The notes under the pieces are model-generated. The model had not been told where the DNA came from. It was given only the letters and a program-made list of their open reading frames with translations, and did no database searches. A stretch of DNA of 64,000 nt from a virus. The stretch spans positions 55,467 through 119,466 of IMG/VR virus record IMGVR_UViG_3300032073_000003. The stretch is one strand, 5' to 3'. Numbering within the stretch: position 1 is the first letter of the stretch; each line of letters starts with the position of its first letter. This document shows, piece by piece, positions 1,665-64,000 of this stretch. The translations under genes were made by a program, and so were the position numbers.

Positions 1665-3872
1665 TTATTTAATATTTTTAAATGCAGATCTTTTAGAAGA
1701 CCTTCTTTTTATACTTCCTTTACCACCCATATGTCTAAAAGGACTCTTAGTTAATTTAAACAAATTTTCTGACTTTTGCAAGTTTTTAGCAGCCTCGTCT
1801 CTAACTGTTCTTTTGTTATACCCTCTATTAGAGTGTTGAATTTTCATAAAACCTACTAAAGCTGCAAATGATACTAATCTATCAGTGTTAACTCCTTCTG
1901 CATACTCTCTCATTTCTTTGATTAACATTGGATCAGGTATTCTTTCAATTCCATAAGTAGTTTTTACTACAGTACCATCAGGTTTAGTTTCTTGATCTAA
2001 TTCTTCTTTAGTATATTCTATAGCATAACTAAGAAGGTGTCCTTTAAATAGTATTCCTGTATTTTTCCATCCATACTCCTGGAAAACGTTAGCATTAGAA
2101 CCAAGATCTTTTAAAAACATAATCTGACCTTTTGGAACAAGATATCTTTGTTTTTTTCTATGTATCATGTATTGTATAAATAATGATATATTATTTTCAA
2201 CTAATGCCCATGCATTATACCATTCTATAATTAATTCTAATCGTTTATGTGTTTGATTTATATCATCATACCTACCACACCAAGCTGCAACAATCTTATC
2301 TTGTTCTATATATGTTTCAGTTTCTGTACCATTTACATTAGTTACTTCAACAGGTGCTTTCATTATGTAAATAGAACATAAAGATTCTGAAGTAGTTGTT
2401 TTTCCTTCTGATACAGGGTCAATAGAAGCATAATAAGTTTTAGCAAATACTGGATTTTTTATAGGTCTTTCCCATACTACAAGACACCCTGTTTTATCTT
2501 CTGTTTTTTTCTTAATTGGAAATTCTGTTATAGGACGTTTATTACTTTTTTTTACGGCAGGTTTTCCATCAGCATCAGCAAAAATATCTAAAAACTCATA
2601 ACCATATTCTTTTTCTTCTATTCTTCTTTCTTGTGCAGTAAGTAAATGAGGAGGGAATACAGATACAGTTCTATGTGCAAATGCTTCTTTAATATTTCTT
2701 GGATGTTGAGATATTCTTAATTGATAATCTTCTGGTGCTAATTCTTTTTTCCAATCTTCAAATTGTTTGTTTAATGCTTCAAATGCATCTTTAACTTTAG
2801 AATTACCATGATCATCAATATGAGGAGGCATTGACCATTGTTCTGGAATAAAAAGTCCTGACAAACCTTCAGTACCTTTATCATCTATTAAATCTGTTTC
2901 TATTGCATATATGTCAGATGCTATAGGATTTTGAATCATTTCTTTTAACGGATTACATTGAGACAAATCACCTACTGATCCAGCAGCTATAAACATACCA
3001 GTTGTAGTAAGACCCGATCTCATTGCAGGTCTCATATACTCATATGTTTTATTCATTTTAGGTGCAATACCTGCTTCTTCATGAAAGAAGTATTTTACTG
3101 GACCACCTACACCATTTGTTGGATCTTTCTCAAATGACATACCTTGTATAGTTCCTTTAAGACCAACTTCAGTTTTACGATCACCCTTTCTAACTTCAAT
3201 TTTTTGTTGCCACATCATAACTTTATCTGGTGACATTGGTCTATACCAAGCAGTATGTTCATTTAAAAATGCAGAATATTCTTGTAAAAATTTCCAAGAT
3301 CCTTTTTCATTTATATAATCTTTTAAACTAGCTCCTATTTTTAATGTAACACCTGGTTCAAACCATTGCTGATTTATTAATTTAGCCATATGATAATAGG
3401 ATGATGCTATCTGACGTTTCTTTAATATAGCAACATGTTTATAATTTAATTCTGCTAATAATTCATATAATGCCATATGATATTGGGCATCTCTAATATC
3501 AGCAAAACCAAATTTTTGTATTTCTTTATTAAAAATTGGTAAAAAATTTAACCACATGTAATATTCTCTTGCAAGAAACCAAATGTTATCTTTATCTTTT
3601 ATAATAACACCTTTTCTACATTTAGCTTTTTCATTGTCCCAATATTTTATAAAGTCACTGGATTTAAAGGGAGCTGTACAATATACTCCATCAGTTTCAA
3701 ATTTTTTAGATTGTTCAATAAATATGTTACTTGTAAGTTCGTTGAATAAATATTCTCCAGGTTGTTTAAATATATTTTTGATAAACTCAGCGAAGTCTTC
3801 TCTGGATTCAAAACTGGTAACTGTCCATTTTTCGTTTTCATAAGTTGGTATGTTTTGATAAATTTCACTCAT
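1665..3872 (-). CDS. terL: Terminase large subunit
   Basis: 735 aa; Walker A-like ILKKRQIASSY, Walker B YFFHEEAG, C-terminal RNase H-like nuclease (ASIDPV...TDRLVS); adjacent to portal. Confidence 0.95.
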   Translation of the reverse strand: MSEIYQNIPTYENEKWTVTSFESREDFAEFIKNIFKQPGEYLFNELTSNIFIEQSKKFETDGVYCTAPFKSSDFIKYWDNEKAKCRKGVIIKDKDNIWFLAREYYMWLNFLPIFNKEIQKFGFADIRDAQYHMALYELLAELNYKHVAILKKRQIASSYYHMAKLINQQWFEPGVTLKIGASLKDYINEKGSWKFLQEYSAFLNEHTAWYRPMSPDKVMMWQQKIEVRKGDRKTEVGLKGTIQGMSFEKDPTNGVGGPVKYFFHEEAGIAPKMNKTYEYMRPAMRSGLTTTGMFIAAGSVGDLSQCNPLKEMIQNPIASDIYAIETDLIDDKGTEGLSGLFIPEQWSMPPHIDDHGNSKVKDAFEALNKQFEDWKKELAPEDYQLRISQHPRNIKEAFAHRTVSVFPPHLLTAQERRIEEKEYGYEFLDIFADADGKPAVKKSNKRPITEFPIKKKTEDKTGCLVVWERPIKNPVFAKTYYASIDPVSEGKTTTSESLCSIYIMKAPVEVTNVNGTETETYIEQDKIVAAWCGRYDDINQTHKRLELIIEWYNAWALVENNISLFIQYMIHRKKQRYLVPKGQIMFLKDLGSNANVFQEYGWKNTGILFKGHLLSYAIEYTKEELDQETKPDGTVVKTTYGIERIPDPMLIKEMREYAEGVNTDRLVSFAALVGFMKIQHSNRGYNKRTVRDEAAKNLQKSENLFKLTKSPFRHMGGKGSIKRRSSKRSAFKNIK

Positions 3873-6545: not shown

Positions 6546-6553
6546 CAAATATA
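6546..6553 (-). promoter_or_regulatory. Bacteroidota sigma70-type -7 box (TATATTTG)
   Basis: Matches the TAnnTTTG consensus, 24 nt upstream of the ATG at 6522 and just past a terminator; the same 8-mer recurs at 14876 and 15485 with similar spacing. Confidence 0.6.
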
Positions 6554-6584
6554 CTAAAATAGTTTAAATATCTAATGTTTAAAC

Positions 6585-14875: not shown

Positions 14876-14883
14876 CAAATATA
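14876..14883 (-). promoter_or_regulatory. Bacteroidota sigma70-type -7 box (TATATTTG)
   Basis: 22 nt upstream of the ATG at 14854, just past a terminator. Confidence 0.6.
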
Positions 14884-14905
14884 ATATACAAAAAAATATT
14901 GAAAT

Positions 14906-15611: not shown

Positions 15612-16409
15612 TTATTTTTCACCGCTTAACATTCTATATTGTAATAAATCTTGATACGTTTTATTGTTAATTTTAAATGGTTGACGACAATCTTTTTCTC
15701 TACAACGCATAAAATGCTGTATTGTTCCAGCAGTTGTAGTATATGTTTTATTAATGCCTACATAATTAGATCCACATTCTGGACATCCATATTTAGGACC
15801 CCCTCTAGCTACTGAATAATTAAATTTATTTCTAGCATATGGTCTAAGCTTTTTATATATTTCCTCTAAGGTCACCACATCTCCATCACAATATTTATGC
15901 ATATGAGCTAACGCTTTAGGATCTTTTTTAAATATTATATTCATCCAAGTTTCTATCCCACCCGGATCTAACTTTAATGTTAATCCAAAATACTTAGCTA
16001 CTTCAGCTAGTTTATTAGACGGGAGGCTTAAATACTTCTTACACATTTTTAAAGTATCTATCATAACATAAGTATCTCGCATTTCTAACCCATGAAACAA
16101 AGCTCTAGTACGTATCCATTTAATATCAAACCTATCTCCATTATGAGCTACTATCTCATCTGCTTTATCTAATACTTTAATAAATTTCTCTATTAACTCT
16201 TTATCGCATTGTTTATTTAAACCCCAATCTAAATGATGCACCTTCTTAAGTCCTTCCCATTTCCAAGAGATAGTCATTATCTGAGCATAATTAATAATCT
16301 GATGTGGTAATATATTTTGGTTATAACCAGGTTTCCAAAAATGACCTTCGCAAAATGATGTCTCAATATCATAGAACAATCTCTTTCTAGATCTTCCTTT
16401 AGTTCTCAT
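15612..16409 (-). CDS. DEDD (RNase H-like/YprB-like) 3'-5' exonuclease with C-terminal Zn ribbon
   Basis: FYDIETS, AHNGDRFD, IDTL, YCDGDV motifs; CPECGS...C...C; ATG at 16409. Confidence 0.85.
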   Translation of the reverse strand: MRTKGRSRKRLFYDIETSFCEGHFWKPGYNQNILPHQIINYAQIMTISWKWEGLKKVHHLDWGLNKQCDKELIEKFIKVLDKADEIVAHNGDRFDIKWIRTRALFHGLEMRDTYVMIDTLKMCKKYLSLPSNKLAEVAKYFGLTLKLDPGGIETWMNIIFKKDPKALAHMHKYCDGDVVTLEEIYKKLRPYARNKFNYSVARGGPKYGCPECGSNYVGINKTYTTTAGTIQHFMRCREKDCRQPFKINNKTYQDLLQYRMLSGEK

Positions 16410-16745
16410 GTGTTGATTATTGGTTAACAATTGAAGCTAAACTTTTGAACAAACTCTTAAGCTTCTTTAACATTGATTTATAATAATATACAAAAAAAAG
16501 ATGAGGATTGCAAAAGTACTACTTCTGTAGGAGGGTTATTACCCCCTCTGTGGTATCATCCATATTTCTAAACTATATATTTCAAGTTGTATACTTTAGG
16601 TTGTGGTGAGGCCTTAATAAAATGATCCCGGGGTCTGCCAACAAGTTGGTCACCCCCCTTTGTTCTACAAGATCATTTTTCATATTTGCTCATACAAATC
16701 TTTTTTTTCTGCTGGCAAAAAAACATCTGCCTGAACAAACAACAG

Positions 16746-16759
16746 CTAACCCTGAACTG
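16746..16759 (+). promoter_or_regulatory. Repeated early-promoter candidate CTAACCCTnnACTR, copy 1
   Basis: CTAACCCTgaACTG, 40 nt before the ATG at 16786. Confidence 0.6.
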
Positions 16760-16785
16760 GCATAGTAACCATTAACATTAATACT

Positions 16786-17097
16786 ATGAAATTTATCAGA
16801 GACAAATTTATAACAGATAATGTCTTTATCTGTTTACAAGAAAATGAACGCTTTGTCACATTTTATTGTGCCAAACACAAACCTTTCACCAAACCTGTTG
16901 GTTATGTTGAAAGAATGTTTGACATTCCTGAGTTTAAGAACTCGGAATTTCATACTAAAGATGCAGAGGATGAATCCTCTCACATCTGTTTTACCATATC
17001 ATATAAGTATTGGACTGGGTCCAAACTTGATGATAACGGTAAACCGTATCAAAATCTCTCAATCAAAGATTGGGATTTTATGGAAGAAGACTCTTAG
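16786..17097 (+). CDS. Early hypothetical protein
   Basis: 103 aa ORF between promoter motif and terminator. Confidence 0.7.
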   Translation: MKFIRDKFITDNVFICLQENERFVTFYCAKHKPFTKPVGYVERMFDIPEFKNSEFHTKDAEDESSHICFTISYKYWTGSKLDDNGKPYQNLSIKDWDFMEEDS

Positions 17098-17111
17098 TCT
17101 TCTTTTTTTTT
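17084..17111 (+). terminator. Intrinsic terminator
   Basis: AAGAAGAC-TCTTA-GTCTTCTT plus T run, overlapping the stop codon. Confidence 0.7.
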
Positions 17112-17145
17112 CCTTGTACAAATAACTTGATTTCCCTCTCTTTTG

Positions 17146-17159
17146 CTAACCCTTCACTG
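17146..17159 (+). promoter_or_regulatory. Early-promoter candidate, copy 2
   Basis: CTAACCCTtcACTG, 41 nt before the ATG at 17187. Confidence 0.6.
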
Positions 17160-17186
17160 ACACTGTATAACTAAAAAACAGATATT

Positions 17187-17564
17187 ATGGTACAAGAAAC
17201 TAAATGCATTAACATTGACGGCAATCAGGTAATAGACTTAACTCCTGATTATAACAGACCACTAGCACTGGTTGACTTAACAGTTCTTAATAAACTTACT
17301 GATTTACTACCTAAAGGAAACTTTACTAGTATCAGACATGGTTTAAGAGGACAAATAATGGATACTAATAACTTACAGGAACTTGTAAAGGTTGCTGAAG
17401 ACTTTGTTACATTTCACAATTCCGTAAACCTCATAAGAGAGGTAAGCTCACGTGAACTGAACACAAAGGAACAGGAAACTACAGAACCTAAAGTTATTGG
17501 TAAAATAGACCTAGGAAACTTGGACAATAATTCTTATGAAAAGAATGAATCATTTGCTCCTTGA
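17187..17564 (+). CDS. Early hypothetical protein
   Basis: 125 aa ORF in a promoter-gene-terminator cassette. Confidence 0.7.
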   Translation: MVQETKCINIDGNQVIDLTPDYNRPLALVDLTVLNKLTDLLPKGNFTSIRHGLRGQIMDTNNLQELVKVAEDFVTFHNSVNLIREVSSRELNTKEQETTEPKVIGKIDLGNLDNNSYEKNESFAP

Positions 17565-17587
17565 TTAGGATTACTAACAATTAACTG

Positions 17588-17619
17588 GAGACATGTTACT
17601 AATAAAGGTAACATGTTTC
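17588..17619 (+). terminator. Terminator-like hairpin
   Basis: GAGACATGTTAC / GTAACATGTTTC, 12-bp stem, followed by pyrimidine-rich sequence. Confidence 0.65.
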
Positions 17620-17645
17620 TTGTTTCTTATAATCCCTTTTTTTTT

Positions 17646-17659
17646 CTAACCCTCAACTA
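17646..17659 (+). promoter_or_regulatory. Early-promoter candidate, copy 3
   Basis: CTAACCCTcaACTA, 49 nt before the ATG at 17695. Confidence 0.6.
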
Positions 17660-17694
17660 GACTTGTTAACATATAAACTAATAACTTAAACATT

Positions 17695-18132
17695 ATGGCA
17701 AATTTAAAAGCTACAAGAAGTGGAAACTATGTACGTAAAGATGGTGACCACAAAGGCAAAACATTCTTTACGTATGACATAACTGGGTCTAAAGAAGACA
17801 TGAAGAAATTCACTGATTCCCCAAACTTTAAACTGTATCCAAGACACAGTGCAACTGGAGTACCACAGATACATACAATGTACATGGACCCGTTACGTAA
17901 ACAGAATCCACTGTATCAGAAACAAGATGGCAGCTTTACGTTGGACCAATCTGAGACAAGAGATGACTTGGGAGTGTTACAAGCACTGAGAGAACAGGCA
18001 CCTGAATTGGTTGCAGGTTTCACAGCCGTGGTACTGGAAAAGTCATTTGGAACACCAAAGGCTACAAGTATGCTTGCACCTGAACCTGTAACTGTAACAG
18101 GTAAAGAGGCAGACTTGACTGACGTGAGCTAG
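17695..18132 (+). CDS. Early hypothetical protein
   Basis: 145 aa ORF, relatively GC-rich for this genome. Confidence 0.75.
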   Translation: MANLKATRSGNYVRKDGDHKGKTFFTYDITGSKEDMKKFTDSPNFKLYPRHSATGVPQIHTMYMDPLRKQNPLYQKQDGSFTLDQSETRDDLGVLQALREQAPELVAGFTAVVLEKSFGTPKATSMLAPEPVTVTGKEADLTDVS

Positions 18133-18145
18133 ATTACTAGAACAA

Positions 18146-18176
18146 TAACAGGATACATATAACGTGTATCTTGTTA
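18146..18176 (+). terminator. Terminator-like hairpin
   Basis: TAACAGGATACAT / GTGTATCTTGTTA, 13-bp stem with two G-U pairs. Confidence 0.65.
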
Positions 18177-18200
18177 CTTGTTTCACAATCCTCTTTTTTT

Positions 18201-18214
18201 CTAACCCTCTACTA
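18201..18214 (+). promoter_or_regulatory. Early-promoter candidate, copy 4 (no ORF directly downstream)
   Basis: CTAACCCTctACTA; followed by a CAACAC-TAAA-GTGTTG hairpin and T run. Confidence 0.5.
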
Positions 18215-18595
18215 GAACTGTATGCAACACTAAAGTGTTGTGTTTTTTTGTAATGTGATTAGTATTAAGTATAATACTATTGTATATTGCAAAGGGTTAC
18301 AGAGTTATTTCTATAGAAGTAGTAGAGTATTGGTTACTCCATACAAATAACAAAATGTAATTCATTGATATTTAATGTTTTAGTCACATGTCTACAGTAC
18401 GTGGAGACAAATAAATTAAATACTCTAAATAATTAACAGAAAACACTAAGTTTTTAGTGTTAATGTGTGTGTTATAGTGTTATTGAGTGCTAAACTACTC
18501 CACTATCTATACTCTTGTGTAAACTTACATAAATACCTTAAAACATCTATTACTATTAATATATATAGCTAACTTATAACTAAATACAAGAAATT

Positions 18596-18820
18596 ATGAA
18601 ACAGATTACTTACTATGGTATTGGTGATATAATACCTTTAAAGCTTATTCAGTCTATTAATGATTACTATAATGAAGTAGGAATTAATAGCTTCTGGGAT
18701 TTTATTTATCATGGAGGTTTCCCAGAATATGTAGAAGCGTATATTCATCCGTCTGATGATATGCGTGATACTCCAATGTTTAACGAAATACAACAAGCAT
18801 ATATTAGTGCTTATGTATAG
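18596..18820 (+). CDS. Hypothetical protein
   Basis: 74 aa ORF with an A-rich translation start region. Confidence 0.6.
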   Translation: MKQITYYGIGDIIPLKLIQSINDYYNEVGINSFWDFIYHGGFPEYVEAYIHPSDDMRDTPMFNEIQQAYISAYV

Positions 18821-54700: not shown

Positions 54701-56193
54701 TAAGTATTTTCTAACTTACGTATATTTTTAATTTCTTCTGAAGTAAGATTTTCTACTATATAGGTTTCATCAAGTTCCGGTTTCATTAAAGATTGGGGAG
54801 CAAGTCTTTCAGGATGTTTTTTATATAAAGATTTATTATAATGATCATTTAAAAAATATTTTCTTAAATAAGGCACTGAAAAATGATGTGCAAGTTCATG
54901 TAAAAGAATGTGTTCTTTACTACCAGGACCTTTATAGCTAACATTTATAACTCCATTTTCCCAAACTCCTCCACCCATAGACCATATTGCAGGTTGTACA
55001 GATGAGCTAGGATTTATAGCATCTATAGTTTTTTTATGACTTAAAAATACATTAGCTAAACTTTTCCATACTTTACCAGGACCTTCTTTAGTTGCTATTT
55101 CTTCTAATATTCCTTTTACACTTTCTCTATATTTTCTAGCCTCCTCTTTTTCCTTAAGTACTATTATATTTTTTTGTACAGTATCAGAATCAAAGAATGC
55201 TTCTCTTCGTGCTAATTCATTATTTACTAGATCAACTATTCTACTATTAAAATCTTCAGGAGCTATTGTTTGATAATTAAGTAAAGTTTCATATTTCTCC
55301 AACATAGCATTAGCACCATGAAACACTTGTCTGGCCCTTTCAATATTAGATGCTTTGTTGCTTCTTGCATTGAAATTTGCTTTATAATATCCTAATGCTT
55401 GCTTTATAGATTTGAAACCTGTTTCTTCAAGTTTAAATAAAGCAGGAAATGCTCTTTCTGCTACTTCTAATTGCTCTGATGTATATTCATCTAAAGATCT
55501 ATTATTATAATTTTTTAAAAAACTATCAAGTAAATTTTTAATACCATATGCTTTATCACTATTTCTACTAGCATCTTCAAGAGAGTCCTTAGTTTCTTTT
55601 ATCTTGTTTGTTAAAAAAGATCTAATATATTCACTATCATTAAGACTTTCATTAAGCTTGTCTATGTTTGTAATTGTATAAGGAAGTCCTATTAATTTTA
55701 TCAATTCTTCAAATACATCATCTAAATACTCAGATTTCTTAACTTGACTAGGTAATTTCTTACTGGTATAAGCTCTAACTTTAATCTTTAATTTATTCTC
55801 TATTAAATTAGAAACTTTTTCTACTTCTGATATGTATCTAGACTTATTCTCACTATATATATCAGGATCTATAACTAAATTAAAACCTTTAGTTTGACGT
55901 TCATCAAATTGTTCTTGCAACCTATCAAATAAAACTCCATTTGGTACTGCTCTATAAGTTGTACTTTTAGCATCTCTTCTATATGTAGATTTACTAGGTT
56001 CAATATTTTCAGATCTATTAATACTAAATAATTTTTCACCGTATGTATCTAAACCATATTTAGTTTGAGCTAAAATAGTTAATTGATCATTAAGTTTATC
56101 AAAAAGATTTCTATCAATGATTTTTCTTACATCGTTAGTTGCACCTTCTTTTTCTAAATATTTTATTGAATTTACTTTTACTTCACAAGCCAT
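48772..56193 (-). CDS. Giant virion cargo (ejection) protein with two zincin-like HExxH motifs, a LysM domain and C-terminal hydrophobic helices
   Basis: 2473 aa; HELAH (54886-54900), HEFGH (54082-54096), LysM-like about 49631-49757, C-terminal GLFVIGLSLLAMMIFG; adjacent to the virion RNAP as in Crassvirales. Confidence 0.85.
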   Translation of the reverse strand: MACEVKVNSIKYLEKEGATNDVRKIIDRNLFDKLNDQLTILAQTKYGLDTYGEKLFSINRSENIEPSKSTYRRDAKSTTYRAVPNGVLFDRLQEQFDERQTKGFNLVIDPDIYSENKSRYISEVEKVSNLIENKLKIKVRAYTSKKLPSQVKKSEYLDDVFEELIKLIGLPYTITNIDKLNESLNDSEYIRSFLTNKIKETKDSLEDASRNSDKAYGIKNLLDSFLKNYNNRSLDEYTSEQLEVAERAFPALFKLEETGFKSIKQALGYYKANFNARSNKASNIERARQVFHGANAMLEKYETLLNYQTIAPEDFNSRIVDLVNNELARREAFFDSDTVQKNIIVLKEKEEARKYRESVKGILEEIATKEGPGKVWKSLANVFLSHKKTIDAINPSSSVQPAIWSMGGGVWENGVINVSYKGPGSKEHILLHELAHHFSVPYLRKYFLNDHYNKSLYKKHPERLAPQSLMKPELDETYIVENLTSEEIKNIRKLENTYKKVLDLHAEGKISFDNGQLTGNAEYGLSNLFEFVSEALGNPMFAKTLSEIPGIYNKKSSLLKDVIDAIFKLFGIKNSSLLDDVYYFIEQSFLNKDENYTFTPRVKEPGVDTDIDKAAWEYRNTPLVDINVNDLNNQRSKQLAEALSQRLALGLNVNYQNVNKEEAADILKNRAVKYNGEAGFYYAGTVYLVGENISPRTVIHEFGHPLLQGLRMKNNILFQKLYKQAIGTEEGQGIKFYVESQYPELDQNSDFFKEEVINYALQLSAINKMNDQINTEGFDKFIQNVMAAIKKILRGIFGSKVKVSKINVDTSIEELADLLLEGQVEIDIPSKLKEEDIVMFGRDVLARAKELEKFSDKESMQGIVDQIYDTNKKILTEAENFKGDTVSKKMLKETLFQKGTTRYLREVTNTLKDYLNTEVEGFDENEKIQNALDAAKESLDADLQRATALVNTLDTTNSMLKNMLSNISKINKANINNRSTVALLMLYKQNSQAWLKMVEEINGLLDMDGKMMDTSNPFYLNLNEIVQNITRVNTNIANLLKTNDVQFYVEITGYMSEYVQDRLKTNLGTALKKAFGPEQLEKAVNDLYYKVTTQELKEEDINELVKKGVPKKILDGFLQEYKDLVIDKDKITEALTGGAKDVTWFNRWLESYSSSNDVVTGPLAMFIENEKSQVENIVWEKSMKFRKKLERLLPAVGFSKLNSAQLREKMGFLDTVFWVDKETGKPIEKKIWSYHGAHKDYRYHYDLLDYNLEEAKKTEDIDKIATAQLEFDTFKRDYMWQDFVPEFYEKDDIFKQSEVGKLAYYVRKQKLAAYNNLVNSMENELERFEEYSTIQAAYREYQQLFALTYEDGTPKVDDEANNVYDLSIAKILQEHREATRDFYEWRPVDASLQSAYNEIVDLLATKNIFSGDEEYEREMKKWERQNLRMDIDPEYWEKRNTLLTELREIQERIKEDGKEQFDIAGAYQTIGELVYTYKDQSGEPNSSDMGNDKLIKVKNLEQEISDFRSSTDARTGLSKDNADELYDLSQKASAGRLEQGSPESDRYFYLLDKVQESGISASDVTRIEQIISELSSLTKKIPTIYYMETLNYNLSRLEVKQISEEDVEERVNADDFQELLEEDEKLAEWFNLNHFTIQKWNKETKAYETYYKRTAANNVSTPTDESYINFTEIIDKNTGEPILLKGAPGIRHSRREVKDEYRTIPFGAKKADYVGTYIDNKNQPLPRLYKPGEKYSAKDDRFINNRYFQMEASNNAEYKLLETIKEYHLQNQEGMSNYSKLYLDMPRYSTKRGDIWQAMQKGTYGSRFSELGKNTKEWLKQSFSRSSNDAELDFNYDAKNNLVNTDLNGNQISYIPVSGIYNLDHEITDADIFRNIFKYALSVQTQSKLLESLPLVNSVLETLEDPANEPKELEKFDKNVWNLKGNLQKAKKKFSTNNRLGQVKSLIEREYYGRMVEGIEETHPVFGKWMQSLQGLSAMGSLALNIPSDLKNKYGAYVQVLLEGIGAEFITLKDFALARPWAERSMLEWSTKGIYQTGPGSKSTQLIQIFDPTFKSKDEFGREIERSLVKDLANFEWMYMHRKFGEMQVAVALFGSFMFGQKVDQILTDGTKKTMRYEEAWEKDAEGIIRLKPGVHPGWSNLPVFHEYQRGETLEEIAKKYYLPVEELKAKNRIKTTVELEDGQEIIIAKSEKFLGLKNRIQGTSRKLFGTYDKMGQSEGNKLLIYRMFFFMRKWFTPMFMNRFGYDSKTLTWTRGGERYDWATGSYGKGFYLTAFQAMVKTIKSGTRDAAYLSTEEKVSLRKMAGEGLFVIGLSLLAMMIFGFDPEDDEKWNKIKKRSGSLSQDTFNTYGFISNHMLLLMLGVQAESSAFVPLPSVKGLNLGMDDYTKMITQTTSAWYNTIVLYADILGDVLDFITFSEMDRYKRDVGTMSFKEKGDLKIWAKIYKTFGRTGSTDDPEYTMQNMMKSQRVGR

Positions 56194-56194
56194 A

Positions 56195-59100
56195 TTATGA
56201 ACATTTAAATGGATCTTCTTCTAATTCTAATTGAATTAATATTTCTTCATCAGTGATACCTTCAGTTTCACCAATTAATTCTGCTACTTGATTATACATA
56301 GTTGAACCAGGATTAACATACTGAAATTCTTCAAATAATCTTTTGCTTAAATATACAAATAATTCTTCGGGCATGGTTTCTTTATTACCAAATCCATATT
56401 CAGGAAAAGCTATTTTTCCATTTTTTTCTTGAATTTCTTTAACTACATTAATTCTTTTTTCCCAAATAGATTTTAACAAATCATATTGACTTGATGGTAA
56501 TTCTACTTTTTTACCATTTTGTACATGACTATATAAATCTGTAGGAAAGTTTATAGACATATTTGGAGCTTCTGACATAAAATACGAAGACCCTCCTAAA
56601 ATAGTATTATTTTCTATCTGTTCAGGTCTTATTTCAAATACACTTGTATTATGTAAAAAGACTATGTCATTATTATTCTTAGTTATATTTGAATAATAAT
56701 ATGAATTTTTAGCATTTTTATCATTATATGTATAAACATTAGATTCATCAGTAAGCTTGACACCAATTCTTTTTTCTTCAACTTCAGTATCCATATTAGT
56801 AGAATCTAATTCAACTCCAGTATCTTCAACTTCACTAGTTTGATCACCTAACTCACTTCTCACTTTCATTAAGATTCTAGGAAACTCTGTACCCCATTTA
56901 CTCTTGTCTTGCGTGTGTGTAAAAGTGGCATTACCTGTAGCTAACAAACTTTGTAAAGCTTTTGGGTTTTGTTTAAAAGATTCTATTAAAATATCTTTCA
57001 TTACAGTAGATGAATCTTTATCCCATTTAACTGTTTCTAATCCAGTTATTTTTCTACCTAAAGCTTTAGCTTGAGCACCTGTAATATTTCCTCTTAATTG
57101 TTCTGTTATTTTTGTATTGTTTGTATTTGAAGGAGCATATGCGGTTTTTGTTGCTTGAAACGCTGCTTCAACTGTTTGATAAGTTTCCCCAGCTACAGTA
57201 AATGGTCTTTTAGCAAAATTACTTAACTCAGCATTTTCATTAGTTCCTGCATATATATTTATTACCTCACTAGTTTGTGGTTGAGATACTTTAGCTTTTT
57301 TAACAGTTTTAAACTCGATATCAGATATATAATCTTTATATCTCTTTCTATTAATATTGTTAGAATTATTTTGTCTAGTAAACATAGTGTAAAAATCATC
57401 TAATACTTCTTGACCATTTTTTTCAAGAGCTGAAATAAAATCTTTAGATTCATTTTCTAGTATAGATAAAAATTCAGTATAGTCAACTACATTTGTAAAG
57501 TTTAACTTTGTTTTATTTAAACCTGTTTGTAAAAAACTATAAAGATTTAAGTATTTAAACATGTTACTTATTCTTAAATTTTCAACTGGATCTTTAACTT
57601 TAGCATATCCAGGATCTGATAGCTTTTTTAGATCACTAGTATAAAGATTAGATTTATCAGTATCAAAATCTTTTTCTGCTAAGTATATATTATAAACACC
57701 ATCTTGTTTACCACCATCTAATTTTAATTTATTTAATACAGGATACGTTTTTGCTAAATCAGAATTTTGATTTATCATATTCATAAATCTAATAGCAAAT
57801 GCATTTTCATCACTTTCAAATAAATGAAATAAATTGAATGAATTATCTAATGCTTTAACAGCTATTAATTTTTCATAAGTATATCTTACTGCTTTTTCTT
57901 GTGTTAAATCAGGTAAAAGTTCTTTAGTATTTTTAAGCTCTTCTTGAAAAGATTTAGCTTTAGCATATTCTTTAGTAAGAGGGTTTAAACTTCTTATATA
58001 TTCACGTTGAGATACAAATTTTAAATACTCATTAAAATTAGTTTCTGAGTTATTCCTAAACGTTGAAGGGTGTAATGGATATAATCCACGTTCTTCATAA
58101 GAATTTTTTACATCAGAATCTTTTTCCCAAGCGTTTTTTCTAAACTCTTTTTTAAGTTGTTTCATATCCATATATAAAACACCATCTTTTACAAATGCAC
58201 CTCTATTAAGATATTTAATTAATTTAGTAGGTACTTTTGTTTCTAAATCTAGAGATAAAAAATTATTTTTATTATCATATTTTCTTATTGTATTTTGTAA
58301 TATATAACTAACAATGTCATTTCTAAATACATTACTAAACATTTCAATATTTTGACCTGGAAATAAATAATCAATATCTTTTCTTATTGCTTCTTTTCTA
58401 CCAATTAAGTAATTAGTAATTTCAGGATGAAATCTTAATTTAAATAAAGGTTTACTTATAGCAAGTACTAAAGGTCCATTAAAAAATGACTTAAGAATAG
58501 TATTACTTTTCATATTATTTACTATCTCCAACGGCACTCTAGAGTCATTTTGTAAATCAGATAGATTTGCTTCTGTTTGCTCTACATCAGATATAGTAGA
58601 TTTAGTACTTGTATCAGGATTAGATGACATTTTAAGAGCTGTATAACCACCAATTTGCTGTTCTAATTCTAAATAATGTAAAAACATTGCTTTTGCCATG
58701 TCACTTTTAGAATCATCATTTTGAATAAGAGTTAACATATCAGATTCTGTAAAGTATTTTTTAGTCTTATTTGAAAAATAATCATCATTTAATTGTTTAG
58801 ATTTTTTATATCTATCTTGATTTTTACTTCTATGGGATAATTCTTTTGATTTAAAGTTTTTACGTATAACCTCAGTAGCTGCATTATATTTAGCTAAATA
58901 TGGTGATTTTATAGTTTTACCAAGTACATCGGCATATGTTGATAAAAATAAACGTTGCTCATTTACATAGTCTCTTACTAAAGGATTTGATACAAAATAT
59001 ATTGCTTCCTTAACAGGTACTCCAGATTTAATAAGATATAATAATGTAGGTGCTACTTCATAGTTACCTTGAATAAAAAATACCCAGGCATCTTTTTCAA

Positions 59101-62100
59101 CATCTACCCATCCATTCATCATTTGAGATATAACATCAGCAACTTTATTAATACCATCAACATCATACATATCTGATACAGATATAACATCATTACCATC
59201 TTTATCAGTCATTACATTATGTCTGAGTCTCATGTTACTTGTTCGTTCTTCTCCTTTTACAGTTTTATAGGTATCGGGCATATATGCTCCAATAGCATTC
59301 ATAATTACATTAAATGTATTTTCAATTGCACCAAGACCTAATGTCTTTTTACCTACAATGTTTGATTCATGCTTATATATATTATATAAGGCTTCTAAAA
59401 CTCTAGTAGGACTAATTTGACTAGTTTCCTTAGTCATTTTATTTTTCTTAGGGTTATATTTAGAAACATGTTTAGCAAGTTTATCTGCAATATCTTTTAA
59501 TATAAATGTACCATTAGGCATAATAAGTGATGCGTAGTTATCTGGTAATTCTAATATTTCTTTAATATCATTAATAAGTTCATTTTCTAATGCTGCCTTT
59601 TGAATTTTTACAGTGTTAAAAAATTCATCAGTACCTCTAAGATCTCTTATAAATTGTAAATCATCACCTAGTCTTTTGACTACTGTTCCATCCTCATTAA
59701 GAGTATTCATAAAAATTGTCAACTTATCAATATCAAAATCACCACCAGATTTAGCAACTATTTCTGCGGGAGGTACTATAATATTTCCTGCTTGTGGAGG
59801 TAAGAATTCAAATACTTCAGCAAATTCCATAGAGTTAAGACCTTGAACTGGTATTCTAACACCTACTAATGTTATTGCTCTTCTGTTAGCTCCATTATTA
59901 GCATCTAACCAAGAATCATCTTTAATTTTTTCATTTAATCTTTCTAAAGATTTGTCTATATTAAGACTTTTTGATGGAAATGTAACAGCTCCTATTCCTG
60001 TAAATTGTTTTGCTTTACCTTTTATATAAGCATTATATTGTCTTTCCGCATCTTTTTTATTTTTAACTACAATTATATCTAAATTATCTCCATCCTTGGA
60101 TTTTAAAGTTGCATGAGAATAATAATCTCCTAATATTTCAATCCCTTGATAAGTACCTCCTTTAATTCGTTTTCCTTCTTTATCATCTAGTATAAGACTA
60201 GATTTAATTTCTGGAGTAAGTTCAGATTCTAAAATAAAAAGTTTAGTATCTCCTTTTGTACTTTTTAATTCAGAAAAAGCCATATCATATATAGGATCTG
60301 CATCATATACACCTACATTTTCACCATTTTCATATTCTAAATTAAATAGGTTATAATAAGTACCTTGCATAGCTATCATAACTTTAGATGCTGCAGTATA
60401 TCCATTTGATTTTCTATGATATGCTGGTAACTCATAAGTTGCAGATGCCCATTTAGCTATTTCATCTTTAGTTGCATTTTTAAATTGAGGATTATTAATT
60501 TGGTTTTTAAACATTCCTACTGATACTTGAACTAAAGGTTCTCCAGCAACTTTTTGTTTAATAACTCTTTTATTAACCATTGAAAGAATTAACTTTTCTA
60601 TTTTAGCAGCTTCAGGATGGAAAGATAAATCATGTTGTAATTTACTTGTATTATCAAATACATCTATAAATTCAATTAAATCATCACTTAAAACATCTTC
60701 TCTTTCAAGATTTGTTCTAATCATGTTTAATAATTTACCTATACTTGACTTATCTTTTGCTCTATATTCTCCTGGAGTAGTTTCTTCATAACCCATTTCT
60801 TCAAGAAGTTCTAACTTAAGCAAGTCAGTATATTCTTCTACATGGTCTATATAACGTTTAACTCTTTCATTTGTAATTTCTTCATATTTAGTAGATTTAA
60901 TTACACCTCTTTCATAAAGACCTTCAAGAATTAACTTACGTAACTGAGTAGAAAATATAGTTTTACCTTTATATTCTGAATTAACTTCTGTCTGATTCTT
61001 TAAAAACTCAGCGTATATTGTATTTACTGTAAACTCAGAGTCTTTATTAAAGCTACCATCTTCATTAAGTACAACATCACCTGTTCCTATATGAGATACT
61101 TTAGAACCTGATTCCATTAATACATAATCTATTTGATCTTTTATCATTTTTTGATGTAAATCATATAATGGTGTTCCTTGTTTTGCCACACCTGGTATTA
61201 AAGGAGCTAATGAAAATTTATGAAATGAATTTACAGGTAATCCGGTAGATTCTATATTACCAAAATATTGTAACTTATATGAAGGGAAAAATTCTACTGT
61301 TTCCTCAACAGTAAGTTCTTCTCCTTTAGATATTTTTCTGTATAATCTTTCTTGATTGTCACTCCAATTAGATTCAGCTTCTTTTAATTGTCTATATGCT
61401 TCAATTGAAATCCACCCTTGACCATCTGCAATTTCCATTTTATTATATTCCTCTGCAGCTGTATCTGATATAGTTTTAGCTATTTTTTTATTTTTAGTTC
61501 TTTTATAAACACTATCGTAAATAACTTCTTTATATTCTTCATACATTTTTGAAGGCATTACCATTTCTTTTATAATAGCTGTTTTTAAAGTACCATCATA
61601 ATTTCTAGACTCAAACCCCATTCTATCAGCATAATACTTTTTTAAAGAACTAAGATATATTTGTGCTCTTCTATCAGCACGAAATCCTTTACCACCAGAT
61701 GATAAACCAGCATTTCTTTTATGAAATTCTTCTTTTGCATGATTATACTGCACAAGATCTCCATAAGCTAGAGTAACAGTTTCCATTTTATGTATAAAAG
61801 AATTATATGTATATGCTTTTATTAATGCTTCTTCTATATCTTCAATAGTTAATTCTGGATTGGTAACTGCTAATCTATTAATTAATCTCTCATCAATATA
61901 TTTAGCATCTTCTAATCTATTTATATTTTCATTAGTATTTTCAGTAAAATATTTAGATATATCGTTTTGGATTAACTCTCGTAATTCATAATTTTCATCT
62001 AATGCATCAATAAGATCAAATATACCAGACTTATCTTTAGATGCTTCATCTAATATATTATATAACTTTTCTTGAGTTGACTCAGTTAACATATCATCAA

Positions 62101-64000
62101 ATGCGGTAAGTGCTTGACCTGCCATGACAGTTGTTCCTTTCTCATCTTTTCTTTTTACCTCTCTATTATAACCAGCATATTCTTTAAACTTATCTATATT
62201 TTGCTGAAATCTAACTATTCTGTTAGCTTCTGCAGCAAGATAACCTTCAATAATATCATATGATTTTATTTCTCCATCACTATAACTTAAGAAAGATTCT
62301 ATATCTACATAAAGCTTATTTTCTTTTTTGCCATTATAAGTTTGTATAGTGCCGTCTACAGACATTCCTAATGCTGTATTTTTAGAAGCATGTCTCATAA
62401 ATTCTTCAACTCCATTCAATAACATTGTATGAATTTCTTGTAAAAATTTACTTGTTGCATCCATAGAAGCTGTACTAGTTCCTGTAGAATTCTTTCCTTT
62501 TTTTATTGTTTGAGTACCTGCTACATGTTGTAAAGTAATTTTAGTATCTGATAATTTTTCACCATATGTACTTGACATAGGATCTAAATCAAAAATAGAA
62601 TTTAAAAGTTTTGAATATGGACTAAATGTATTATTAGCTTCATTTAACCATCTCATATGTTTAAATCTACCATTAATATCAGCAGCATCAGTAGTTAATT
62701 CTTGCCAGTTTTCAGCATAATTAATAGCAGTAACAATTCTTGTAACTGTATTATCAACCATATGTTCCCATACTCTATTTCCCTCTGGTGTTTGTACACT
62801 AAAGTTTGAATAACCATCAGAAAACATATTTTGTATTTCAGCTAATGATCTAATTCTAGCTGACACATCTTCACTTTGTTCTTTATCTTCTCTAAGAGAT
62901 TCAGGTAATCCTTCCATTAACATTGTTAAGGGATCTTTCTTAAATTTTAAAACGTCAGGACTATTACTTTTATTTACAATTTTAACTACCTCGTACATTC
63001 TGTCCACACCAAACAAAGTGCTAAAGGGATTTTCAGTACTATTTATTATTTCTTTAATAGCAACACTGGATTCATCTAATACGACTCCAATAGCTTTTAA
63101 GAATTCATTAGCTTTTTTATAATTAAATGAACCTTTTACTCCAAAATCTTTAACAATCTTAGCAGTATTTAATAAGTTAACCCCTAATTCATCTTTTTCT
63201 ATATAAGGATTTACTTTACTATCTGCAGTTGTAAAATTAGATTTCCAATCTCTAGTAACTTGATATACATCAAAACTAGCTTTTGCTAATCTAGTTTCAT
63301 AATTACCATCTTCATTTTTACTTAAATTTAATTGTATATACGGTATTCTAGGTTTTTTAAAATCTTGCCAAAAAGCAGTTTCTAATTTAAACTCTTCTCT
63401 AGATGAGTATTCAGGTCCTTGTAAAACTCTAAAAGGATTTGGTAACACATCTAATAGTTGTTGAAGTTCTGGATAGTTTACACTACTTTCATATATTCTA
63501 ACATACATATCCATATCATCATACGAACCTTGTAATATCTTAGCAAGTTTATTCCAAGTACTAATAGTATCTTGTAATTTTGGTAATCCAAATTGACCTC
63601 GTACTCTAACAGCCTCTTTATTTTCAACAGACGTTTCAAATAAACTAGCTAATAGCATCATAGTTTCATCTTTAGCTAATTTAAAAGATGAGGTGCTATT
63701 ATCATCTTTTAGCTTAAATAAACTACTTTCACTAATGTTAGTAGGATCTTCTATTTCTATATATTGATCTTTTAATATATTAAATCTTGTTTTTTCTAAA
63801 TGATAAGATATTACATTGTCTTTTTTACCAAGATCAAATACATCATTTGGACCAATATAATTATCTGTTATTTTTTCTAATAATTCTAAATCTTCTAAGA
63901 AACCAGGTTCTGAAAGTAAATCTAAATCTTCTTGTAACTTTGATACATATGCTAACCTAAGTCTTTCAAATTTATCATATATATCTCTATATAATTCTTT
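56195..64000 (-). CDS. Virion-packaged RNA polymerase (crAss-like two-barrel RNAP) with an inserted NADAR domain; 5' end outside the window
   Basis: Catalytic GGDFDIDK (59726-59740), RIPVQG and ADGQG motifs. I checked the frame from 63661 to 64000 and found no stop, so the track's MML start is internal (at least 2601 aa in the window). Confidence 0.92.
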   Translation of the reverse strand, partial: KELYRDIYDKFERLRLAYVSKLQEDLDLLSEPGFLEDLELLEKITDNYIGPNDVFDLGKKDNVISYHLEKTRFNILKDQYIEIEDPTNISESSLFKLKDDNSTSSFKLAKDETMMLLASLFETSVENKEAVRVRGQFGLPKLQDTISTWNKLAKILQGSYDDMDMYVRIYESSVNYPELQQLLDVLPNPFRVLQGPEYSSREEFKLETAFWQDFKKPRIPYIQLNLSKNEDGNYETRLAKASFDVYQVTRDWKSNFTTADSKVNPYIEKDELGVNLLNTAKIVKDFGVKGSFNYKKANEFLKAIGVVLDESSVAIKEIINSTENPFSTLFGVDRMYEVVKIVNKSNSPDVLKFKKDPLTMLMEGLPESLREDKEQSEDVSARIRSLAEIQNMFSDGYSNFSVQTPEGNRVWEHMVDNTVTRIVTAINYAENWQELTTDAADINGRFKHMRWLNEANNTFSPYSKLLNSIFDLDPMSSTYGEKLSDTKITLQHVAGTQTIKKGKNSTGTSTASMDATSKFLQEIHTMLLNGVEEFMRHASKNTALGMSVDGTIQTYNGKKENKLYVDIESFLSYSDGEIKSYDIIEGYLAAEANRIVRFQQNIDKFKEYAGYNREVKRKDEKGTTVMAGQALTAFDDMLTESTQEKLYNILDEASKDKSGIFDLIDALDENYELRELIQNDISKYFTENTNENINRLEDAKYIDERLINRLAVTNPELTIEDIEEALIKAYTYNSFIHKMETVTLAYGDLVQYNHAKEEFHKRNAGLSSGGKGFRADRRAQIYLSSLKKYYADRMGFESRNYDGTLKTAIIKEMVMPSKMYEEYKEVIYDSVYKRTKNKKIAKTISDTAAEEYNKMEIADGQGWISIEAYRQLKEAESNWSDNQERLYRKISKGEELTVEETVEFFPSYKLQYFGNIESTGLPVNSFHKFSLAPLIPGVAKQGTPLYDLHQKMIKDQIDYVLMESGSKVSHIGTGDVVLNEDGSFNKDSEFTVNTIYAEFLKNQTEVNSEYKGKTIFSTQLRKLILEGLYERGVIKSTKYEEITNERVKRYIDHVEEYTDLLKLELLEEMGYEETTPGEYRAKDKSSIGKLLNMIRTNLEREDVLSDDLIEFIDVFDNTSKLQHDLSFHPEAAKIEKLILSMVNKRVIKQKVAGEPLVQVSVGMFKNQINNPQFKNATKDEIAKWASATYELPAYHRKSNGYTAASKVMIAMQGTYYNLFNLEYENGENVGVYDADPIYDMAFSELKSTKGDTKLFILESELTPEIKSSLILDDKEGKRIKGGTYQGIEILGDYYSHATLKSKDGDNLDIIVVKNKKDAERQYNAYIKGKAKQFTGIGAVTFPSKSLNIDKSLERLNEKIKDDSWLDANNGANRRAITLVGVRIPVQGLNSMEFAEVFEFLPPQAGNIIVPPAEIVAKSGGDFDIDKLTIFMNTLNEDGTVVKRLGDDLQFIRDLRGTDEFFNTVKIQKAALENELINDIKEILELPDNYASLIMPNGTFILKDIADKLAKHVSKYNPKKNKMTKETSQISPTRVLEALYNIYKHESNIVGKKTLGLGAIENTFNVIMNAIGAYMPDTYKTVKGEERTSNMRLRHNVMTDKDGNDVISVSDMYDVDGINKVADVISQMMNGWVDVEKDAWVFFIQGNYEVAPTLLYLIKSGVPVKEAIYFVSNPLVRDYVNEQRLFLSTYADVLGKTIKSPYLAKYNAATEVIRKNFKSKELSHRSKNQDRYKKSKQLNDDYFSNKTKKYFTESDMLTLIQNDDSKSDMAKAMFLHYLELEQQIGGYTALKMSSNPDTSTKSTISDVEQTEANLSDLQNDSRVPLEIVNNMKSNTILKSFFNGPLVLAISKPLFKLRFHPEITNYLIGRKEAIRKDIDYLFPGQNIEMFSNVFRNDIVSYILQNTIRKYDNKNNFLSLDLETKVPTKLIKYLNRGAFVKDGVLYMDMKQLKKEFRKNAWEKDSDVKNSYEERGLYPLHPSTFRNNSETNFNEYLKFVSQREYIRSLNPLTKEYAKAKSFQEELKNTKELLPDLTQEKAVRYTYEKLIAVKALDNSFNLFHLFESDENAFAIRFMNMINQNSDLAKTYPVLNKLKLDGGKQDGVYNIYLAEKDFDTDKSNLYTSDLKKLSDPGYAKVKDPVENLRISNMFKYLNLYSFLQTGLNKTKLNFTNVVDYTEFLSILENESKDFISALEKNGQEVLDDFYTMFTRQNNSNNINRKRYKDYISDIEFKTVKKAKVSQPQTSEVINIYAGTNENAELSNFAKRPFTVAGETYQTVEAAFQATKTAYAPSNTNNTKITEQLRGNITGAQAKALGRKITGLETVKWDKDSSTVMKDILIESFKQNPKALQSLLATGNATFTHTQDKSKWGTEFPRILMKVRSELGDQTSEVEDTGVELDSTNMDTEVEEKRIGVKLTDESNVYTYNDKNAKNSYYYSNITKNNNDIVFLHNTSVFEIRPEQIENNTILGGSSYFMSEAPNMSINFPTDLYSHVQNGKKVELPSSQYDLLKSIWEKRINVVKEIQEKNGKIAFPEYGFGNKETMPEELFVYLSKRLFEEFQYVNPGSTMYNQVAELIGETEGITDEEILIQLELEEDPFKCS

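Follow-up and report, generated by a model that had tools for sequence, protein, structure and literature searches.

Tandem copies of a conserved CTAACCCT block at the head of the replication arm of a crAss-like phage, candidate promoters for its injected RNA polymerase

The locus and its repeated motif

The window, that is, the whole stretch of 64,000 nucleotides (nt) analysed here (positions 55,467 to 119,466 of IMG/VR record IMGVR_UViG_3300032073_000003), is the final 64 kb of a 119,466-bp viral record, and the subject of this work is a short motif, CTAACCCTnnACTR, that is repeated four times within it. The genome has a crAss-like layout, with one long minus-strand block, a plus-strand replication arm at 16786-48576 and two giant minus-strand open reading frames (ORFs); its single divergence point is 16431-16785. 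The minus-strand block carries the terminase gene (1665-3872), which the Pfam TerL model did not match and which was recognised through PHROGs instead (PHROG 6681), and the major head protein is encoded upstream of the window.

The last of the giant ORFs (56195-64000, minus strand) contains the sequence DFDID and encodes a homologue of the crAss-type virion RNA polymerase, as an earlier note made from the sequence alone had held. In tblastn searches with its catalytic part, the only relatives were crAss-like phages (81 records, 21-38% identity), among them the Bacteroides crAss001-type phages and Cellulophaga phi14:2. Given this restricted set of relatives and a TerL that is approximately 25% identical to Crassvirales TerL, the genome can be placed in an uncultured and distant branch of the crAss-like phages. 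These phages inject an RNA polymerase of unusual structure, a two-barrel enzyme akin to the polymerases of RNA interference. The phage genome encodes no sigma-70 region 2 or region 4 domain, and the T7-like polymerase domain PF00940 was not found in it, in a search that was likewise silent on the control genomes. The polymerase ORF also holds a C-terminal YbiA/NADAR-like domain (residues ~2124-2258 of 56195-63661, minus strand; PDB 2b3w, E 8e-7; PHROGs 1017 and 652).

At the head of the plus-strand arm, the four copies of the motif, labelled units 1-4, are arranged with three small genes and four hairpins as follows. The core of the motif is CTAACCCT; scores in bits are those of a weight matrix trained solely on other phages; L010 and L011 are two related contigs, and the cassette families are described below.

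16746-16759, plus: unit 1, core CTAACCCTGAACTG; the first unit, without a CCCTC-T tract; 25.8 bits; conserved in L010 and L011
16786-17097, plus: ORF1, 103 amino acids, no Pfam or PHROG family; ATG 40 nt past the start of the unit-1 motif
17082-17115, plus: terminator-like hairpin (17082-17106) with T9 at the end of ORF1; fold z -2.4
17131-17159, plus: unit 2, tract TTTCCCTCTCTTTTG followed by CTAACCCTTCACTG; 27.2 bits
17187-17564, plus: ORF2, 125 amino acids, no known family; ATG 41 nt past the motif start; optional cassette family F4
17587-17620, plus: terminator-like hairpin of 14 pairs after ORF2; fold z -4.8
17631-17659, plus: unit 3, AATCCC-T9 followed by CTAACCCTCAACTA; 20.9 bits
17695-18132, plus: ORF3, 145 amino acids; ATG 49 nt past the start of the unit-3 motif; its family is the penultimate cassette in nearly all arrays
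18146-18176, plus: terminator-like hairpin of 13 pairs after ORF3; fold z -6.0
18187-18214, plus: unit 4, AATCCTC-T7 followed by CTAACCCTCTACTA; the last unit, non-coding; 18.8 bits
18222-18250, plus: hairpin (18222-18243) with T7, beginning ~21 nt past the unit-4 core; position kept across relatives
56195-64000, minus: giant ORF of >2600 amino acids that runs beyond the end of the window and of the record; DFDID at ~59740; crAss-type virion RNA polymerase homologue and proposed reader of the motif

The pattern CTAACCCTNNACTR matches exactly at 16746, 17146, 17646 and 18201, each time on the plus strand, and nowhere else in the 119,466-bp record. Shuffled sequences contain 0.03 matches on average, and none of 100 shuffles reaches four. 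When two mismatches are permitted, the pattern is at background level, with 9 matches found and 7.45 expected. Under the weight matrix, the next-best site in 119 kb scores 12.9 bits and lies within coding sequence; in shuffled genomes, the matrix finds 1-8 matches at ≥9 bits. Ahead of each of units 2-4 stand a terminator-like hairpin and a pyrimidine tract with a T run at its end, and an A-run/T-run lies 25-45 nt upstream of unit 1. The exact copies, their spacing of 40-49 nt before three consecutive ORFs, the hairpins and tracts ahead of copies 2-4 and the resulting cassettes of terminator, promoter-like block and gene had all been described in the earlier note and are borne out here and, as a layout, in relatives. 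Its two weaker look-alikes are not: the sites at 18569 and 45304 score 4.6 bits and <0 bits, which is chance level.

Folded as DNA, the four units have minimum free energies of 0 to -1.9 kcal/mol over both strands (z -0.65 to +1.25), and three of them are wholly unstructured. This lack of structure in the block on either strand rules out a promoter hairpin of the kind used by coliphage N4. A general TAACCCT signal was also considered and rejected, as the other copies in the genome fall in coding sequence and share no context. The motif is not a known RNA family: an Rfam search of 16300-18700 returned nothing at E ≤1. A megablast comparison of the array region with GenBank phages gave no match.

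Arrays and core variants in related phages

Similar arrays, on one strand and with 3-9 units, are found in approximately 35 related viral contigs. When IMG/VR was scanned for the exact pattern, 102 stretches were retrieved. Same-strand clusters of CTAACCC are present in about 45 of them and reduce to 26 distinct arrays of 3-7 units; a second pattern scan that included the upstream tract added no array-bearing lineage. L010 and L011, found through the ORF3 protein (61-69% identity), carry four units each in the same places as the window. In G005, a relative that is 99% complete, there are five pattern matches, all of them inside the array.

The architecture of the units is shared across these arrays. 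A non-first unit reads, in order, hairpin, T run, CCCTC, T5-6, G or T, CTAACCCT and TAACTT, and first units are without the CCCTC-T tract. A stable hairpin (z ≤-2) lies within the 77 nt upstream of 83 of the 87 non-first units. In coding units, an ATG stands 32-56 nt past the core and starts a small orphan gene, and across the 26 arrays the last unit almost never precedes a credible ORF. The hairpin that follows the last unit shows double-sided compensatory changes in six of its ten pairs across relatives.

Because this first set had been ascertained through the motif, the retrieval was repeated with an alignment of the ORF3-family protein. It returned 27 loci, six of them on new contigs, and every one has an array of 3-7 matrix matches on the gene strand and zero on the opposite strand. 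The core stays invariant while ORF3 identity drops to 21-40%. At the most distant locus, L146 (ORF3 40% identical), there are eight CTAACCCT units, but the downstream half reads T(T/A)TAT in place of nnACT, so the invariant part of the motif is the 8-mer CTAACCCT. For L008 and L009, relatives of a 596-amino-acid protein, the sequence examined stops short of any array.

Clustering of the cassette proteins gives one universal family, F1, to which the penultimate ORF3 belongs, three alternative first-cassette families (F2, F3 and F6), two optional families (F4 and F5) and several singletons. ORF1 is a member of F6, which is found only in the closest relatives. As the families vary at the repeats, relatives differ by whole units between repeated signals.

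Arrays and polymerase occur together where this could be compared. The near-complete array-bearing relatives tested (G001, G005 and G006) encode the DFDID polymerase at 73-87% identity, and two large contigs with a single chance match to the pattern have neither array nor polymerase. For more distant relatives of the polymerase, the head of the replication arm was inspected. G014 and G015 (polymerase 64% identical) keep CTAACCCT. In G010, G011 and G012 (65-67%), the same CCCTC-T tract is followed by ATCAACC(C/T)T, that is, a core TCAACCYT, and G013 (63%) has CTAGCC(C/T)T and then TAACTT. The most divergent, G019 (46%; L226, G019:C1:56001-76000, minus strand), has seven units after hairpins, each a T run joined to ATAACCTATTAC, with the variant core ATAACCTA. 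These units lie 35-45 nt before ATGs, except the last two, which are non-coding, with hairpins in place of genes. In a tree of polymerase fragments, the TCAACCYT genomes form one clade (100/99), and CTAACCCT is spread over the remaining ingroup. Such a relation between core variants and polymerase lineage is the pattern that would be expected of a polymerase and its promoter drifting together.

Candidate readers of the motif

The genome holds a second class of promoter-like box, TT(T/A)GTATATT (TTWGTATATT), which follows a T run. All eight of its intergenic copies are on the minus arm, among the structural and polymerase genes, and lie 15-85 nt before start codons; there is no intergenic copy on the plus strand and none in the array. 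They include the following.

16485-16494, minus: box TTTGTATATT after a T run, in the divergent region and facing the minus arm
14883-14892, minus: further copy, intergenic
6548-6557, minus: further copy, intergenic

Some copies read GTATATTTG and fit the Bacteroidota -7 element TAnnTTTG. With separate boxes on the two arms, the genome has two unrelated upstream signals, a host-like one on the structural and polymerase arm and CTAACCCT at the head of the other. The TTWGTATATT class is the likelier counterpart of the tripartite host-type motif of crAss-like middle and late genes (Drobysheva et al.).

A promoter function of the CTAACCCT block is very likely. The reading we favour, at a probability of about 0.55, is that the block is an early promoter specific to the phage, with the injected polymerase as its most likely reader; promoter activity, start position and reader are all things that we infer. 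The earlier note had likewise named the virion RNA polymerase as the reader of this candidate promoter. The conservation, the arrays beside the same polymerase, the core variants and the separate host-like class speak for that proposal, from which the look-alikes drop out and in which the virion enzyme is the putative reader. Under it, four tandem promoters would head the plus-strand arm, with the upstream tract of CCCTC and T run as part of all but the first. Units 1-3 would each drive one small orphan gene ending at a hairpin that resembles an intrinsic terminator, and unit 4 would yield only a short transcript of ~35-45 nt, ending at the conserved hairpin and its T run. The reader would be the virion-packaged two-barrel DFDID polymerase (56195-64000, minus), delivered with the DNA, and it would recognise a contiguous, unstructured, pyrimidine-rich sequence, as opposed to a bipartite sigma-type promoter or an N4-type hairpin. 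Transcription may start a few to ~20 nt downstream of the core. An immediate-early role would fit the place of the array, which heads the arm and has a non-coding stretch behind it.

Several observations weigh against this assignment. Most arrays were retrieved by the motif itself, which is an ascertainment bias, and the arrays are not phylogenetically independent. The motif variants also track everything else in these genomes, hosts included, and represent only two or three independent changes; moreover, CTAACCCT persists in G014 and G015 though their polymerase (64% identity) has diverged to the same degree as in the TCAACCYT clade. The early regions of phi14:2 and crAss001 have neither a matrix match nor an analogous repeat array, and the only experimental study of such a polymerase saw no common motif upstream of the phi14:2 early transcripts (bioRxiv 10.1101/2020.03.07.982082). 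The 'direct terminal repeat' of the record is probably an assembly overlap, given that the polymerase ORF runs past the record end; as it sits inside that ORF, it is probably no guide to which DNA enters the cell first. Finally, an alternative host sigma factor is a conceivable, if unlikely, reader.

The last point belongs to a broader alternative, to which we give limited credence, in which the host RNA polymerase reads the promoter, using an alternative sigma factor or recognising the site as an atypical promoter of the primary sigma factor, the TTTG before the core serving as -33 element and the AT-rich sequence downstream as a weak -7 or -10. TTTG does directly precede CTAACCC in many units, and since the early transcripts of phi14:2 share no motif, conservation does not by itself tie a motif to the virion enzyme. 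However, ~40% of the units have T, not G, before the core, and conservation peaks in what would be the spacer. The array motif is not a sigma-70 or Bacteroidota primary-sigma promoter, as it also lacks a -7 or -10 element at a fixed distance. This accords with the earlier note, which had found no match to the Bacteroidota -33/-7 consensus: the stretch from each unit of the window to its ATG is free of TAnnTTTG, and no TTTG-N17-21-TAnnTTTG is intergenic. Nor does a TAnnTTTG/TATAAT-type box occur at a fixed distance past the core, as a host promoter like those of the PeSL cassettes of T4-type phages would have, and a sigma-70 scan of the region found 19 sites against 24.4 expected. Among 185,579 prokaryotic species genomes, the extended motif has a single match, antisense within a Serpentinicella coding region and judged to be chance, and the phage genome has a separate host-like box that is restricted to its other arm. 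A condition-dependent sigma factor would also be an unusual means of immediate-early expression, which we count against a host reader.

A cis element that is not a promoter is a somewhat poorer prospect. The block could act in the 5' leader or in RNA processing, bind an early regulator as its operator or provide the homology for cassette exchange. It points the same way as the genes, its distance from the ATG varies rather little, and the cassette content of relatives varies exactly at these repeats; the half-site TTAACTT resembles the 'epsilon' leader of T7 gene 10. Against these points, each gene needs a start signal of its own, since a strong terminator-like hairpin stands between one unit and the next. 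A role as an RNA leader fails at the last unit, where there is no gene for translation or processing, and no gene lies upstream of the first unit. Typical operators differ from the motif, which is non-palindromic and occurs in one orientation. The epsilon-like part, which L146 replaces by TAT, does not include the invariant CTAACCCT. Exchange at repeated promoters, as at the PeSL cassettes, is in any case compatible with promoter function.

It is very improbable that the early polymerase terminates at a composite signal (hairpin, T run, CCCTC, T run and CTAACCCT) of which the motif forms the distal part: non-first units do always stand behind hairpins and T runs, but unit 1 of every array keeps the core without a preceding gene or terminator, the CCCTC-T tract of last units is ~14 nt from the terminator T run yet attached to the core, and the core keeps a constrained distance from the ATG downstream but a variable one from the hairpin upstream.

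Elements around the array and comparison with known systems

Beyond its last hairpin, the array is followed by a non-coding field, and it is bracketed by a pair of 14-nt elements.

18251-18595, no strand assigned: AT-rich non-coding stretch after the array (~350 nt), with a TAGTAT/ATACTA inverted repeat
16517-16530, minus: 14-nt element CTAYAGAAGTAGTA, left copy CTACAGAAGTAGTA; 23 nt upstream of the minus-arm box TTTTTTTTGTATATT; conserved in L010 and L011
18311-18324, plus: 14-nt element CTAYAGAAGTAGTA, right copy CTATAGAAGTAGTA; partner of the left copy

The AT-rich field includes TAGTATTA/TAATACTA at 18260-18279. In relatives (for example L015:1-460, L062:4290-4700 and L044), the sequence past the last-unit hairpin is dense with short repeats in both orientations, namely TAGTAA, TAGTAT and ATACTCAATACT. 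The field is iteron-like and possibly an origin or operator field. A bolder extension of the favoured reading, which we regard as a long shot, would make CTAACCCT the first defined promoter of a crAss-type two-barrel virion polymerase, unstructured and co-evolving with the enzyme (CTAACCCT, TCAACCYT, CTAGCCYT and ATAACCTA). The last unit would then be the promoter of a ~40-nt hairpin RNA that primes or activates replication, or switches transcription, at the adjacent iteron-like field, like the promoter-coupled primary origin of T7.

CTAYAGAAGTAGTA has exactly two copies in the window (0.07 expected), which form an outward-facing inverted pair around the entire array. It is conserved in L010, L011 and further relatives, and the pair could be an operator or a boundary element. 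The divergent region, otherwise AT-rich, also holds a GC-rich block at 16606-16665 (GAGGCCTTAATAAAATGA...CCCGGGG...TTGGT..CCCCCCTTT) that is conserved in L010 and L011; palindromes of the GGGGTACCCC type or C-rich runs upstream of the first unit are present in L146, L018 and L046 as well. Conceivable roles for this block are those of an insulator, of a packaging site or of a portion of an origin.

The structure model of ORF3 (pLDDT 77.7; good for residues 1-110) combines a small beta-barrel at the N terminus with two long helices, a disordered linker and, at the C terminus, an acidic tip. A Foldseek search with the model found nothing at E ≤0.001, and the best VIA-align Z was 3.6, to generic small barrels. 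The modelled outline is reminiscent of single-strand-binding (SSB) proteins, a resemblance unsupported by any fold match. On the other side of the array, the exonuclease gene at 15612-16430 has homologues that are 75-87% identical, but retrieval through this neighbour yielded no arrays and is not informative, as the only locus with enough upstream sequence, L117, is a different phage with a co-directional block. The exonuclease encoded there (L117:3998-4780) is 81% identical to that of the window and lies inside the co-directional block of an unrelated-looking phage, which suggests that the gene moves between phages.

Among known systems, the early promoters P1-P3 of coliphage N4 are read by an injected virion RNA polymerase, whose initiation resists rifampicin, and are DNA hairpins: their inverted repeats flank a GC-rich heptamer with its centre at -11, supercoiling extrudes them and SSB stabilises them (PMC4496689). 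As in N4, a few tandem, co-oriented, phage-specific promoter-like sites that do not resemble the host sigma consensus stand at the head of the presumed early region, with hairpin terminators, and the proposed reader would, by analogy, be delivered with the DNA. The two systems differ in that the N4 promoters are hairpins, whereas the block described here is unstructured on both strands, and in that the N4 enzyme is a T7-like single-subunit polymerase, whereas the candidate here is a two-barrel DFDID protein related only to crAss-type polymerases.

Promoters of the T7 family, with a contiguous consensus of ~23 bp, are read by the single-subunit phage polymerase, spread over the genome in middle and late classes and come in T7, T3 and SP6 variants. 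The present motif is likewise a contiguous conserved block, of ~14-26 nt, whose variants change with phage lineage. T7 promoters, however, serve the middle and late classes genome-wide, whereas the array is confined to one place.

A parallel in enzyme type is Thermus phage P23-45, in which a virion two-barrel RNA polymerase is fused to the tape measure protein and pre-early promoters are AT-rich, with start-site and chromatin immunoprecipitation data available (bioRxiv 10.1101/2022.12.01.518664). In both systems, a virion two-barrel polymerase is linked to a conserved motif before the first genes, and the motif is present only in relatives with the virion enzyme. In P23-45, however, the motif is AT-rich, the polymerase architecture differs and the starts have been measured, whereas the promoters here are candidates from sequence.

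[quoted passage not shown] The window shares with phi14:2 the homologous DFDID polymerase and the genome layout, and the highly transcribed non-coding stretches of phi14:2 lie near the head of its early arm; its early region, however, has no CTAACCCT-type site or analogous array. The earliest crAss001 genes (0-10 min) form a small group, to which a regulator and a TROVE protein belong (PMC8375218). A long intergenic region beside the TROVE gene (crAss001 96170-96770; L115:4170-4770) has 5-6 copies of a ~24-nt repeat, TTGAAGTAAsTCTaT..ACAC.

In the literature searched, we found no description of the promoter specificity of a crAss-like injected polymerase, and searches for a crAss-type early promoter or for the motif string returned nothing relevant. 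The present clade offers an 8-nt invariant core in a block of ~26 nt and a layout that is fixed, together with natural variants at one or two bases that go with polymerase lineages and, as internal control, a host-like box. The natural core variants are ready-made templates for specificity-swap tests of the polymerase-promoter question. If the host polymerase reads the motif, the finding shrinks to an unusual class of host-type promoter.

In organisation, the array recalls the PeSL cassettes of T4-type phages, in which a stem-loop is combined with a strong early promoter of sigma-70 consensus, an AT-rich upstream region and a Shine-Dalgarno sequence, of which ~50 are scattered over a genome and whose recombination with one another yields encapsidated mini-circles (Arbiol et al. 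2010, PMC2839356). In both, a stem-loop terminator is joined to a promoter, here a candidate early promoter, before small orphan genes and is repeated in a plastic region, with genes gained, lost and replaced between the repeats. The motif of the window, however, matches neither sigma-70 nor the Bacteroidota -33/-7 consensus, and its 3-9 units are gathered in one place. The arrays also show crAss-like phages exchanging presumptive early orphan genes at repeated regulatory cassettes, like T4-type phages at their PeSLs.

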